A stretch of 64,000 bases of DNA, taken from the NCBI GenBank assembly GCA_964412195.1, contig CAYPNP010000011.1, positions 63,881-127,880 on the forward strand. The letters run 5' to 3'. Below the pieces are notes generated by a model. The model did no database searches, was not told the DNA's origin, and was given only the letters and a program-made list of their open reading frames with translations. This document shows, in pieces, positions 16,910 to 21,717 of this stretch (the first letter of the stretch is position 1; each line of letters opens with the position of its first letter). The translations under genes and the position numbers were made by a program. The stretch is from an uncultured Acidobacteriota bacterium (GTDB lineage Bacteria; Acidobacteriota; JAAYUB01).

Positions 16910-18346
16910 TTACGGTCGAGTGTGGAAAATGTAGTCCCGGATCTCCCCGGCGAGGCGGAAGGCGGAGGCGGTGCAGTCGTTCACCCCGATGCCGTGGAAG
17001 GCGTTGCCGGTGACCCACAGGCCGGGCACCCGGCGGGACGCCTCCGCGGCCCGGGTACGCAGCCCGAAGTGGCCGACGTTGTACTGGGGGATCGCCTTCT
17101 CCCAGCGGAAGACTCGCGTGAATTCGGGCTCCGCGCCGATGCCCATGATGGCGGCGGCCTCGCGGCGGGCCGTGGCCAGCACCTCCTCGTCGGCGAGGTC
17201 CCGGATGTCCGTCCGGCGCGCCCCGCCCATCATCACCGTCAGCAGGACGTGTCCGTCCGGCGCCCGGTCCCCGGGGAAGATCGAGGAGGTCCAGAGGATG
17301 CCCAGAATGTCCCTCTTCTCCGAGTTGGGGATCAGGAAACCGAATCCATCGGGATCGGCCAGGGCCCCGTCGTGCCGGAAGCCCAGGCCGACCACGGCCA
17401 TGGGCGAATAGGGCAGGGCGCGGCACTCGGCCGCGAAGTCCGGCAGGAGCGGCTCCAGGAAGCGGCCCGCGGCGTCGGCCGGCGCGGCGCTCACGAAGAC
17501 ATCGGCCGCGAGGGTTTCCCCGTCGGCTCGGACGGCAAATCCCGTTTCGGTCTTCGTCACGGCTTCCACGGTCCGGCCCAGCCGCAGCGCGCCGCCCAGC
17601 CGCTCCGCCAGCGCCGAGGTCAGGCGGTCCAGGCCGGGCTTGTAGGAGGTGAGCACCCCGCCGGGTCCGGCCGGGCCCGACCCGGTCTTGTCCCCGCGCC
17701 GGCGCTTCTCCCGCGCCAGCGTCAGCATGGCCTTGAACAGGCCGCCGTACTGGTTTTCCAGCTCCCAGATCCGCGGGAAGGCGCTGCGCAGGCTCATGGT
17801 CTCGGGGTTGCCGGCGAAGACGCCCGTCACCATCGGGTCCAGCAGGCGCTGGTAGGCCTCCTCGCCGAGGCGCCGGCGGGCGAAGCCGGCCAGGGTCTCC
17901 TCGGCCTCGCCGCGGTAGGCCGGCTGCCACAGTTCGGCGACGATCCGCAGTTTGCCCCGCCAGCTCAGGAGCTTCGACTTCAGAAACATGGGCGGGTTTT
18001 CGGGCAGCCGGTGCAGCTGCCCGTGGAGGTAGATGTAGCGCTTGCGGGCCGTGTCGGAGGAGCGCAGCAGCTCCCCGTCCAGGCCGAGGCGCCGGTTCAG
18101 GTCCAGGGTGGAGGGCTTGCTGTCGAGGAAGCCGTTGGGGCCGGCCTCCAGCCGGAAGCCGCCGTCGGCCACGGTCCAGATCTTGCCGCCGGGCCGGTCC
18201 GCCGGCTCCAGGACAACCAGCTCCGGACCGTCGGGCGGGCAGATCGGCCGCAGCTCCTCCCGGATCAGCCACGCTGCCGCCAGGCCGGAAATCCCGGCCC
18301 CCGCCACCACCACCCTCGGCCGCCGTCCCTCGCTCAGCATCGGCAT
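16910..18346 (-). CDS. hemG: HemY-type protoporphyrinogen/coproporphyrinogen oxidase
   Basis: FAD-binding GAGISGLAAA, EAGPNGFL, GVFAGNPETMS, AIPQYNVGH, GIGVNDC. Confidence 0.95.
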   Translation of the reverse strand: MPMLSEGRRPRVVVAGAGISGLAAAWLIREELRPICPPDGPELVVLEPADRPGGKIWTVADGGFRLEAGPNGFLDSKPSTLDLNRRLGLDGELLRSSDTARKRYIYLHGQLHRLPENPPMFLKSKLLSWRGKLRIVAELWQPAYRGEAEETLAGFARRRLGEEAYQRLLDPMVTGVFAGNPETMSLRSAFPRIWELENQYGGLFKAMLTLAREKRRRGDKTGSGPAGPGGVLTSYKPGLDRLTSALAERLGGALRLGRTVEAVTKTETGFAVRADGETLAADVFVSAAPADAAGRFLEPLLPDFAAECRALPYSPMAVVGLGFRHDGALADPDGFGFLIPNSEKRDILGILWTSSIFPGDRAPDGHVLLTVMMGGARRTDIRDLADEEVLATARREAAAIMGIGAEPEFTRVFRWEKAIPQYNVGHFGLRTRAAEASRRVPGLWVTGNAFHGIGVNDCTASAFRLAGEIRDYIFHTRP

Positions 18347-18361
18347 TCACTCCAAAGCAGA

Positions 18362-18497
18362 TTTGACCACGGATGAACACGGATAAATCGGACCAAGATT
18401 TCTTATCGAGCAGTGCATTCAGAACTTGTTTTGCTGATTGTACTATTCACCTATTCACCCATTCACCGGCTCCCCATCCGTGTTCATCCGTGGTTAA
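18362..18497. repeat. CACGGAT inverted arms enclosing an ATTCACC module; overlaps the hemH 3' end
   Basis: accacggatgaacacggat ... atccgtgttcatccgtggt. Confidence 0.85.
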
Positions 18498-19576: not shown

Positions 19577-19591
19577 GTTTTCCAGCCGGAT

Positions 19592-20623
19592 TTACCGATC
19601 CGTTCTCGGAAACCGCCCGAGCTCGTGGACCAGGTCCACCAGCAGCCCGACCCTCACCGGGTCGGCGTCCGGCCAGATCCCGTGGCCCAGGTTGAACACA
19701 TGGTGCGCGCCGCCGCCCCGGAGCGCCTCGCCGACGTGGCGACGCAGGGCGTCCTCGGAGCCGTACAGCAGCCCGGGGTCCAGGTTTCCCTGCAGCACGC
19801 GCTCGGGTCCCACCTTCTCGCGGACCGTGGCTAGCGGCACCCGCCAGTCCACGCCCAGGACGGTGGCGCCGGCCGTGCGAGCCAGGTCGATCAGGTGCCA
19901 GCCGTCCAGCACGAAGTAGATGGTGGGCACGCCCAGGCCCCGCAGCGTCTCCAGCAGGCGCACGACGTAGGGCCGGGCGAAAGCCTCGAACTCGGCCGGG
20001 GCCAGGATGCCGCCCCAGGTGTCGAAGAGCTGCACGGCGTCCACGCCGGCCTCCACCTGGGAGCGGAGGTAGCGGGCGTTGCCCTCGGTGATGGCCTCCA
20101 GCAGCCGGTGGAAGAGGTCCGGCCGGCCGTACATCAGCTCGCGCACCCAGCGGAAGTTGTGGGACGAGCCGCCTTCCACGGCGTAGCAGGCCAGGGTGAA
20201 GGGGGCGCCGGTGAAGCCGATCAGCGGGACCCTGCCGGCCAGCTCCTTGCGGATCACCCGCACCGCCGCGGGGACGAAGGCGGTCGCCTCCGGCAGGCGC
20301 GCGGGCTGGAGCGCGGCGACCGCCGCCTCGTCCCGCACCGGCGCCAGCTTGGGACCCTCGCCCTCGTGGAAGCTCAGCGCCTGGCCCATGCCCTCCAGCG
20401 GAATCAGGATGTCGGAGAACAGGATCGCCGCGTCCAGCGGGAAGCGCCGCACCGGCTGGATGGTCACCTCGGCGGCCAGCTCCGGCGTCTTGCACATCTC
20501 CAGGAAGGAGTGCTTCTCGCGGATGGCGCGGTACTCGGGCAGGTAGCGGCCGGCCTGGCGCATGATCCAGACCGGGGTGGTGTCGGGCGTGCGGCCCTGG
20601 AGGACGTCCAGGAATCGGCTCAT
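19592..20623 (-). CDS. hemE: Uroporphyrinogen decarboxylase
   Basis: PVWIMRQAGRYLPEY, AILFSDIL, QLFDTWGG, LQGNLDP, FNLGHGI. Confidence 0.97.
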   Translation of the reverse strand: MSRFLDVLQGRTPDTTPVWIMRQAGRYLPEYRAIREKHSFLEMCKTPELAAEVTIQPVRRFPLDAAILFSDILIPLEGMGQALSFHEGEGPKLAPVRDEAAVAALQPARLPEATAFVPAAVRVIRKELAGRVPLIGFTGAPFTLACYAVEGGSSHNFRWVRELMYGRPDLFHRLLEAITEGNARYLRSQVEAGVDAVQLFDTWGGILAPAEFEAFARPYVVRLLETLRGLGVPTIYFVLDGWHLIDLARTAGATVLGVDWRVPLATVREKVGPERVLQGNLDPGLLYGSEDALRRHVGEALRGGGAHHVFNLGHGIWPDADPVRVGLLVDLVHELGRFPRTDR

Positions 20624-21717
20624 GACTTCTCCTCGCCCTTGACCGCGGCGGCGGACTTCCGCATCCGGAAGGGCACGTAGTGGCAGAACGGCTCCTCGTC
20701 GAGGTAGTCGCCGGTGACGGCGTAGGCGCGGGCGCGGCAGCCCCCGCAGATCTTCTGGTACTCGCACTGCCCGCAGCGGCCCTTGTAGAGCGAATCGTCG
20801 CGGAGTTCGGCGAAGAGCCGGCTGTTTTCCCATATCTCCTGGAAGGGAGTCGTCTTGACGTTGCCGGCCGACACCGGGAAGTAGGAACAGGGATAGACGT
20901 CGCCGTTGTTGTCGATCAGGCAGATGGTCTGGCCGGCCAGGCAACCTTTCTTGCCGCCGGTGGAAAACTTCAGGTTGCGCCGGACCAGCTTCTCGTCGGC
21001 CTTCCGGTTCTCCTCCTGGATGATCCGGTAGTAGTGCGGCGCACAGGTGGGCCGCATCAGCACGTCGGACTCGAGCTTTTCCTGCTCGTAGTGCCAGCGC
21101 AGGATCTCCTCGTAGTCCTCCGGCGAGATCAGTTCGCTGAGCACGTCCTCGCCGCGGCCCGTCGGAACGATCATGAACATGTACCACGCCGTGGCGCCCA
21201 GCGACTTGGCCAGTCGGAAGGTGGCGGGGATGTCGGCCTGGTTGCGCCGGGTGAAGGACGAGTTGAGGATGAACTCGATGCCGGACTCCCGGAAGAGCCG
21301 CGCCGCGCGGACCACCCCGTCGAAGGCGCCGGGCTGGCCGCGGAAATCGTCGTGGACCCGGGCGGTCGAACCGTCCAGGCTCATGGAGACCATCCGGACG
21401 CCGCTCGCCTGGATCTTCCCGCACACCGCCTCGTCCACGAGGGTGCCGTTGGTGGCCAGGCACATCCGCAAGCCGCGGCGGGTGCCGTGGCGGGCCAGAT
21501 CGAAGATGTCCGGGCGCAGGAGCGGCTCCCCGCCGGACAGGACCAGCACCGCCGGGTAGTAGTCGGCGATGGTGTCGATGAGCCGGATCGCCTCCGGTGT
21601 CTGGAAACCGCCTTCGGGCGAGTGGATGTCCGAGGCGGAGCGGCAGTGGATGCACCGCAGGTTGCACTTCCGCGTGGTCTCCCAGGCGATCCACCTGGGC
21701 AGATATTCCTGTTTCAT
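20620..21717 (-). CDS. ahbD: Radical SAM/SPASM coproheme decarboxylase (AhbD/NirJ-like)
   Basis: IAWETTRKCNLRCIHC, LSGGEPLLR, MRPTCAPHYYR, GCLAG..GDVYPC, CGQCEY..CGGCRARAY; ATGA overlap with hemE. Confidence 0.85.
   Translation of the reverse strand: MKQEYLPRWIAWETTRKCNLRCIHCRSASDIHSPEGGFQTPEAIRLIDTIADYYPAVLVLSGGEPLLRPDIFDLARHGTRRGLRMCLATNGTLVDEAVCGKIQASGVRMVSMSLDGSTARVHDDFRGQPGAFDGVVRAARLFRESGIEFILNSSFTRRNQADIPATFRLAKSLGATAWYMFMIVPTGRGEDVLSELISPEDYEEILRWHYEQEKLESDVLMRPTCAPHYYRIIQEENRKADEKLVRRNLKFSTGGKKGCLAGQTICLIDNNGDVYPCSYFPVSAGNVKTTPFQEIWENSRLFAELRDDSLYKGRCGQCEYQKICGGCRARAYAVTGDYLDEEPFCHYVPFRMRKSAAAVKGEEKS

Follow-up and report, generated by a model that had tools for sequence, protein, structure and literature searches.

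The kind of haem pathway that a bacterium uses is routinely called from gene content, and the combination of HemY, HemH and AhbD without HemN, HemF or ChdC is read as the coproporphyrin route. A cluster of four haem genes in a 64,000-nucleotide stretch of DNA from an uncultured Acidobacteriota bacterium (contig CAYPNP010000011.1, positions 63,881 to 127,880 of the forward strand; hereafter the window) raises the question of whether that reading holds. The cluster encodes a radical S-adenosylmethionine (radical-SAM) enzyme of the AhbD family together with HemE, HemH and HemY. In this study, HemH and HemY were found to carry the published determinants of protoporphyrin-type enzymes. The answer that we prefer, and to which we give about an even chance, is that the radical-SAM enzyme would decarboxylate coproporphyrinogen III and so replace HemN in the protoporphyrin route.

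The gene cluster and its radical-SAM enzyme

As the original prediction had it, the four genes at 16910-21717 are co-oriented; they lie on the minus strand, are transcribed in the order radical-SAM/SPASM gene, hemE, hemH and hemY, and their coordinates run from the hemY stop to the radical-SAM start. The diderm host that had been supposed fits as well, the nearest relatives being Acidobacteriota metagenome-assembled genomes (MAGs) with 77-78% identity. The features of the cluster are as follows:

20620..21717, minus strand: AhbD-family radical-SAM/SPASM enzyme of the 'type 2' clade, 365 amino acids (Pfam Radical_SAM and SPASM; TIGR04545)
19592..20623, minus strand: hemE, uroporphyrinogen III decarboxylase, 343 amino acids (TIGR01464, 388.8 bits against a cut-off of 303; URO-D, 409 bits)
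18447..19466, minus strand: hemH, ferrochelatase of predicted PpfC type with an active-site lip at about residues 33-56 (PF00762, 290 bits)
16910..18346, minus strand: hemY, flavin adenine dinucleotide (FAD) oxidase with the PgoX signature (TIGR00562, 297.8 bits)
20620..20623, minus strand: ATGA overlap of the radical-SAM stop (TGA) and the hemE start (ATG), suggesting translational coupling (read from the sequence)
21718..21954, no strand assigned: divergent intergenic region of 237 bp upstream of the operon (map of open reading frames)

The remaining gaps between the genes measure 125 bp and 100 bp, and the G+C content at third codon positions is 0.88-0.93 in the four reading frames. The start of the radical-SAM gene at 21717 was backed by an identical database protein, P0003.

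The radical-SAM protein matched the Pfam domains Radical_SAM (78 bits) and SPASM (42 bits). A CX3CX2C motif was present at Cys18/22/25, and further cysteines (Cys259/266/277/315/318/324/327/345) lie mostly in the C-terminal SPASM part. Among family models, AhbD (TIGR04545) scored best at 432.8 bits, followed by TIGR04053 (312), NirJ2 (302), NirJ (211) and AhbC (197.5). The original prediction of AhbD rather than AhbC or NirJ thus held, and the tree agreed with the scores; an AhbC or NirJ identity was rejected on both grounds. By sequence, the protein is a member of the AhbD family, although its score lies below the equivalog cut-off of 500 bits; on the same model, the type 2 proteins of Nitrospirota reached 448 bits and an AhbD that adjoins AhbC in the Acidobacteriota genome G128 reached 496.5 bits. 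The protein belongs to neither the fold nor the sequence family of HemN, so that, if it is HemN-like in action, it would be an analogue and not a member.

The comparisons were made on a sample of 201 Acidobacteriota genomes, in which three unpublished genomes (G023, G048 and G145) count in the tallies only and stand outside all trees; none of the conclusions depends on them. In the radical-SAM tree, the window protein fell into a tight clade, named type 2, with 100% support in the Shimodaira-Hasegawa-like approximate likelihood ratio test (SH-aLRT) and a stem of 0.72. This clade comprises the other Acidobacteriota cluster genes, proteins of Nitrospirota (64-65% identity) and one of a Planctomycete (53%). 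The proteins of G004, G094, G009 and a Caldilineaceae MAG, with those of family f28, belong to a separate AhbD clade, type 1. A library clustered at 50% identity contained only one full-length representative of type 2 above 50%.

The known relatives are the AhbD enzymes of the sirohaem-dependent pathway (Methanosarcina barkeri, Desulfovibrio; TIGR04545), with which the window protein shares the radical-SAM core, the SPASM domain and the cysteine motifs, and it shows 43-47% identity to AhbD proteins encoded next to AhbC or carrying a fused sirohaem decarboxylase. The predicted chemistry, conversion of the ring A and B propionates to vinyls, would be shared as well. Unlike these enzymes, the window protein scores below the cut-off (433 against 500), sits in a separate clade with a long stem, occurs in a genome in which AhbA, AhbB and AhbC were not found, and is coupled to hemE, a gene that the sirohaem route can do without. 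The substrate may also differ from the coproheme of AhbD, since the partner enzymes in the window are of protoporphyrin type. As a side observation, locus L029 (G128 C10) holds AhbC (603 bits) and AhbD (496.5 bits) side by side, which points to a sirohaem-dependent haem route in that genome. Acidobacteriota thus appear to use sirohaem, ChdC, type-1 AhbD, type-2 AhbD and HemN/HemF solutions.

The absence of hemF, hemN and chdC from the cluster, noted earlier from the window, was found to extend to the genome (G000; 5.2 Mb, 97.5% complete). Whole-genome searches of G000 gave no match for ChdC (PF06778), HemF (PF01218), AhbA/B (PF17805) or HemJ. A true HemN was likewise not found in G000, where TIGR00538 gave at best 103 bits (cut-off 325). 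Two HemN-like open reading frames (ORFs) scored best: one is HemW (231 bits) and the other is a 478-amino-acid paralogue without confident assignment (C3:279846-281279, minus strand, locus L001; STM4012 family model 184 bits, HemN 107 bits); two weaker matches (29 and 22 bits) lay outside this check. Among the 201 genomes, the paralogue is confined to G003, the genus of the window and the genus sister to it, and the other type-2 lineages gave no match for it. A hidden HemN was therefore rejected. No AhbC-like match was present among the 19 radical-SAM matches of G000, and a sirohaem-dependent route was rejected on this finding together with the missing AhbA/B. The cluster enzyme is the sole candidate found in G000 for the propionate-to-vinyl step. 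G000 also encodes a second SPASM radical-SAM paralogue resembling AhbD, NirJ2 and TIGR04053 (C10:166-1629, minus strand, locus L016; AhbD 246 bits), which has an N-terminal extension of 115 amino acids, lies at a contig edge and is placed on a long branch in the radical-SAM tree. The organism needs haem, because G000 encodes three homologues of haem-copper oxidase subunit I (best 501 bits), and for the same reason it probably respires oxygen.

Protoporphyrin-type signatures in HemH and HemY

A maximum-likelihood tree of 84 HemH sequences was divided into two clades with 100% SH-aLRT support. With the exception of one genome that has neither, the source genomes of clade I (31 sequences) all have either a full-length or partial ChdC-family match or the other AhbD clade. 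Clade II (53 sequences) contained every hemN-adjacent ferrochelatase, all ten linked to the radical-SAM gene and four stand-alone second copies, and the window HemH was placed here alongside the ferrochelatases of hemN operons. The members of clade II have about 17 extra residues after a conserved Asp (about residues 33-56 in the window protein), and these align with the 'lip' of the human enzyme. When the lip spacer was measured from this Asp (window D32) to the Ser of the GGxSP motif (S71), it amounted to 20-23 amino acids in clade I (n = 31), 36-39 in hemN-linked HemH (n = 22), 35-39 in HemH linked to the type-2 radical-SAM gene, two Nitrospirota included (n = 12), and 38 in the window. The lip sequences themselves were alike in the radical-SAM-linked and the hemN-linked proteins. 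Furthermore, most of the 25 conserved positions specific to clade II are retained in the radical-SAM-linked HemH, with the clearest departures at window positions 137, 174 and 220. The positions of human M76 and H341 were rejected as single-residue discriminators because they vary inside both clades.

Comparison with solved structures gave the same picture. In the Protein Data Bank (PDB), the window HemH matched human PpfC with 164.6 bits and the CpfC enzymes of Firmicutes with 65-77 bits, close to the values of a hemN-adjacent control (G050; 167 and 62-75 bits). A control from a ChdC genome (G037) scored 122 bits with human PpfC and 129-159 bits with Firmicutes CpfC, and 177 bits with a 362-amino-acid CpfC of unidentified source. 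In a fold search with the AlphaFold (AF2) model of the window HemH, which had a mean predicted local distance difference test (pLDDT) value of 92.6, human FECH was the best match (TMq 0.87), and yeast PpfC also came ahead of the CpfC structures (0.76-0.82). The window HemH differs from human PpfC in that it has no C-terminal [2Fe-2S] extension and carries Asn at the position of human His341. According to the Dailey review of 2026 (PMC13564367, section 8.2), coproporphyrin III is not a substrate of PpfC enzymes, a specificity explained by the lip. These determinants point to a ferrochelatase of PpfC type with a preference for protoporphyrin; the coproporphyrin-dependent pathway is marked by a lip-less CpfC, and the window HemH is not of that kind.

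Two further observations concern HemH in other genomes. In family f28, four ChdC genomes (G140, G071, G150 and G170; loci L038, L057, L044, L053, L105 and L106) hold two ferrochelatases each, and HemN and HemF were not found in these four. The lip-less HemH adjoins hemE in G140 and G071, and also hemY in G140, and the lip-bearing HemH stands alone in all four genomes; in G150 and G170 the second copy is known by its location only. Type-1 AhbD with an insertion is carried by G150, G140 and a further genome of this family, G047. In two loci of the sister genus, a HemH ORF of 823 amino acids proved to be an out-of-frame read-through and not a HemH-HemY fusion.

The oxidase gave a corresponding result. 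Three positions (R95, F329 and L332 in Myxococcus xanthus numbering) are invariant in PgoX and hold small residues in CgoX, whereas CgoX is marked by F227 of Bacillus subtilis, strictly conserved, and R364, highly conserved (Zamocky et al., PMC10740692). At each of these five positions, the window HemY shows the PgoX state (R103, F335, L338, L232 and T370). At the position of R95, the residue was small in all 15 HemY proteins from ChdC or type-1 AhbD genomes, Arg in 18 of 20 from HemN or HemF genomes, and Arg in all ten linked to the type-2 gene, three Nitrospirota among them. At the position of F227, the same three sets showed Phe (15/15), never Phe (20 sequences) and Leu (10/10), respectively. 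The position of R364 was Arg in 15/15 of the first set, variable in the second, and Thr (six) or Arg (four) in the third.

Moreover, M. xanthus PgoX (2IVD) was the best solved-structure match of the window HemY, as human and yeast ferrochelatase were for HemH, and the window HemH has kept the lip, the window HemY the R95/F329/L332 pocket residues. Against the PDB, the window HemY scored 300 bits with M. xanthus PgoX and 210 bits with B. subtilis CgoX; the corresponding values were 237 and 146 bits for a hemN-operon control and 208 and 243 bits for a ChdC-genome control. Unlike M. xanthus PgoX, the window HemY falls with the other type-2-linked oxidases into a clade of their own among bacterial HemY (97-99% support). 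By its residue signature, the window HemY appears to be of PgoX type, and enzymes of this type reportedly leave coproporphyrinogen unoxidised (PMC13564367). The CgoX-type HemY of the coproporphyrin-dependent pathway is not what was found, the diagnostic residues being Leu, Thr and Arg. The two partners expected of the protoporphyrin-dependent pathway, a PgoX-type HemY and a lip-bearing PpfC-type HemH, are both present, and neither CgdC (HemF) nor CgdH (HemN), which belong to the same pathway, was found in G000. The earlier suggestion that the hemG and hemH of this cluster would really be cgoX and cpfC is contradicted by the lip, by the placement in clade II and by the five PgoX positions.

Distribution of the cluster and its surroundings in the window

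Close orthologues of the radical-SAM enzyme (at least 59% identity) were found in ten of the 201 Acidobacteriota genomes, in four families. None of these ten has HemN, HemF or ChdC, although strong ChdC matches are present in about 55 genomes of the sample, true HemN in 74 and HemF in 25. The haem operon takes the form hemE-hemN-hemH-hemY in HemN genomes and hemE-hemH-hemY in ChdC genomes. A third form, in which the radical-SAM gene precedes hemE-hemH-hemY, is found in the window, the sister genus and family f23, with looser forms in f19 and f2. In Nitrospirota, the radical-SAM gene is followed by hemE and hemH in two loci and by hemE in a third, with hemY elsewhere. The adjacency of the radical-SAM gene and hemE is thus the conserved core of the cluster across phyla.

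Among 151 Nitrospirota genomes, type 2 was present in 46 and a class of AhbD with 41-46% identity in 34. HemN (26 genomes), ChdC/Cld-family proteins (45) and HemF (5) showed zero overlap with these 80 AhbD genomes, so that none of the 46 type-2 genomes has HemN, HemF or ChdC. The lip of HemH was present in all 12 type-2 genomes read (ten beyond the two in the spacer set) and in all nine HemN genomes, and it was absent from all three ChdC genomes and all eight genomes of the 41-46% class. Genomes with type-1 AhbD have a lip-less clade-I HemH, and the HemY proteins read from them (those of G004, G009 and the Caldilineaceae MAG) grouped within the CgoX clade; these genomes are the proposed AhbD coproporphyrin route proper. 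Five genomes from outside the Acidobacteriota that were included for their AhbD-like gene (three Nitrospirota, one Planctomycete and one Caldilineaceae) are without AhbA/B and HemN and have hemY elsewhere. For the type-2 operon, a single origin followed by transfer of the whole unit between phyla is probable.

Within the window, a scan of the minus (coding) strand for promoters and terminators gave nothing above chance inside the cluster, and no terminator-like site was found between the four genes. In the 237-bp region upstream, the sole promoter-like match points toward the divergent gene. This gene (21955-22761, plus strand) encodes a protein of 268 amino acids with no Pfam match and is followed by a Smr-domain gene (22758-23099, plus strand); proteins with 62-63% identity occupy the same divergent position in loci L005-L007, and the gene and the haem operon might share the region as a control region. 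On the other side, hemY is separated by 183 bp from a downstream ORF of 211 amino acids (16091-16726, minus strand). This ORF combines a zinc ribbon at the N terminus with several predicted membrane helices, and a Pfam match was not found for it. It probably lies outside the haem cluster, because a 62%-identical copy in the sister genus (L006 and L033) is located about 4 kb from hemY. Further downstream on the same strand (12678-15817) are genes for a DUF4126 protein with a zinc ribbon, a DUF362 protein and a DUF6599 protein, for which we know of no role in haem synthesis.

The step catalysed by the radical-SAM enzyme

From the observed gene content, family membership, partner signatures and distribution, we infer the substrate of the radical-SAM enzyme and thus the order of the steps. 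The conversion of the ring A and B propionates of coproporphyrinogen to vinyls is normally carried out by HemN (CgdH) or HemF. In the pathway that we propose for this terminal haem operon, HemE would make coproporphyrinogen III, and type-2 AhbD would turn the two propionates into vinyls right after HemE, at the porphyrinogen stage. HemY would then act as protoporphyrinogen oxidase and HemH, last, as protoporphyrin ferrochelatase. An enzyme recruited from the sirohaem pathway would in this way have displaced HemN one for one. The type-2 clade would then add a third, hitherto unrecognised kind of coproporphyrinogen III oxidative decarboxylase, oxygen-independent and of SPASM type, a proposition that we hold to be about evenly balanced.

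Several observations favour replacement of HemN. Both enzymes flanking the propionate-to-vinyl step carry protoporphyrin-type determinants, and a change of substrate in one enzyme would reconcile the findings most simply; the proposal needs one change of specificity, and a coproheme substrate would need two. No other decarboxylase was found in G000, the conserved adjacency of the radical-SAM gene and hemE fits consecutive steps, and type-2 AhbD was never found alongside HemN, HemF or ChdC. Because co-occurrence with HemF or ChdC was seen in none of the 10 + 46 type-2 genomes, the co-occurrence test was uninformative between this proposal and a coproheme substrate. The HemN (CgdH) operons of other Acidobacteriota offer a parallel: here, too, a single radical-SAM enzyme is encoded together with hemE, a lip-bearing hemH and a hemY of PgoX type, the two radical-SAM enzymes are mutually exclusive across genomes, and the predicted reaction is the same. 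Unlike the window enzyme, an unrelated SPASM protein with auxiliary clusters, HemN has a two-SAM fold, and its gene sits between hemE and hemH rather than upstream of hemE.

The strongest rival is the original prediction itself, in which HemE is followed by HemY acting as CgoX and HemH acting as CpfC, and the AhbD-type enzyme converts the resulting coproheme to haem b. For this pathway, reviews accept that the coproporphyrin route can finish with AhbD (PMC7242693, PMC10114771, PMC13564367) and ahbD is reported to co-localise with hemY and hemH (PMC10548856). Its gene content stood, in that HemN, HemF and ChdC were not found in G000, and so did the assignment of the radical-SAM enzyme to AhbD, the best model by 120 bits; its naming of HemY and HemH as CgoX and CpfC did not. 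Both proteins carry the published protoporphyrin-type determinants, so that two enzymes would have to break the rule of their family and accept copro substrates as exceptions. In the same two phyla, HemH without exception lacks the lip (31 + 11 sequences) in genomes that must make coproheme, be it with ChdC or with the other AhbD clade, and the HemY of such genomes, where read (15 sequences, from Acidobacteriota and one Caldilineaceae MAG), is of CgoX type. On this balance, we consider the hybrid possible but doubtful.

A number of points nevertheless weigh against replacement of HemN, and the first of them equally support a coproheme substrate. To our knowledge, all characterised AhbD enzymes use coproheme. 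The sister of type 2 (88% support, with AhbC as outgroup) is the G128 AhbD that adjoins AhbC and so belongs with the sirohaem pathway, and many of the next relatives in the clustered library (40-45% identity) are fused to sirohaem decarboxylase domains. Type 2 has kept 63 family-conserved positions and shows five conservative clade-specific switches, which give no clear sign of a remodelled active site; that two of the five adjoin SPASM cysteines is a lead only. Coproporphyrinogen has no central iron, and M. barkeri AhbD appears to use the iron as an electron relay. In the HemY tree, the type-2-linked clade joined neither the hemN-operon clade nor the ChdC clade. The case is carried by the lip and PgoX rules, to which the controls examined (operon-linked ChdC, HemN and HemF) showed no exception and which stem from reviews and alignments rather than from assays of these proteins. 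Furthermore, given the probable single origin of the type-2 operon, the association with a lip-bearing HemH amounts to roughly one evolutionary event and not to many trials. In favour of the proposal, M. barkeri AhbD binds metal-free coproporphyrin III with a dissociation constant (Kd) just two-fold weaker and turns it over slowly (PMC6013774), so that the family tolerates metal-free substrates.

Two other explanations are improbable. In the first, another protein would be the real coproporphyrinogen decarboxylase, for instance the HemN-like paralogue of G000 described above, and the AhbD-like enzyme would modify, for example, another tetrapyrrole. That paralogue does exist, with its 184 bits to STM4012 and 107 bits to HemN; however, its restriction to two genera and one other genome, and the linkage of the radical-SAM gene to hemE across phyla, speak against it, as does the fact that HemN-like paralogues such as HemW are known not to be decarboxylases. 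We regard it as very unlikely. The weakest is a route in which HemY oxidises coproporphyrinogen, the radical-SAM enzyme makes protoporphyrin IX from metal-free coproporphyrin III and HemH acts as PpfC: the low activity of M. barkeri AhbD on the bound coproporphyrin III, the PpfC type of HemH and the separate clade of type-2-linked HemY agree with it, but the HemY signature is that of PgoX, reported to be inactive on coproporphyrinogen (PMC13564367), and not of CgoX, which makes it the least probable of all.

The idea of a hybrid pathway is not new. An AhbD variant of the coproporphyrin-dependent pathway is said to have been among the proposals made by Dailey in 2015. The last step of the coproporphyrin route has been assigned to AhbD or HemQ/ChdC (PMC7242693), an AhbD-like enzyme might perform it anaerobically (PMC10114771), and AhbD has been found in coproporphyrin-route organisms without the other Ahb enzymes (PMC13564367). 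The hybrid has thus already been proposed in reviews, and the mismatch with the partner enzymes is the new point. The proposed variant (PMC7242693; PMC10114771) has the same set of HemE, HemY, HemH and an AhbD-type enzyme, without ChdC, HemN or HemF. It needs CgoX and a lip-less CpfC, whereas the window has enzymes of PgoX and PpfC type; the lip-less HemH of the variant was seen with the other AhbD clade (G004, G094, G009 and eight Nitrospirota). An AhbD-like coproporphyrinogen dehydrogenase was not described in the literature searched, outside of which lie Dailey 2015 (PNAS) and 2017 (MMBR).

If replacement of HemN is correct, type-2 AhbD would be a new enzyme for a classical step, acting on coproporphyrinogen III, and it would explain how many anaerobes without HemN synthesize protoporphyrin. 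It would take the place of HemN or HemF in about one third of the sampled Nitrospirota (46/151) and in several families of Acidobacteriota. Pathway calls would then change for many Nitrospirota and some Acidobacteriota, and surveys may have mis-scored such genomes as using a coproporphyrin route with AhbD. If the enzyme instead acts on coproheme, both the lip rule and the PgoX/CgoX signature would have natural exceptions. The same phyla hold two AhbD clades, one with protoporphyrin-type partners and the other with coproporphyrin-type partners.

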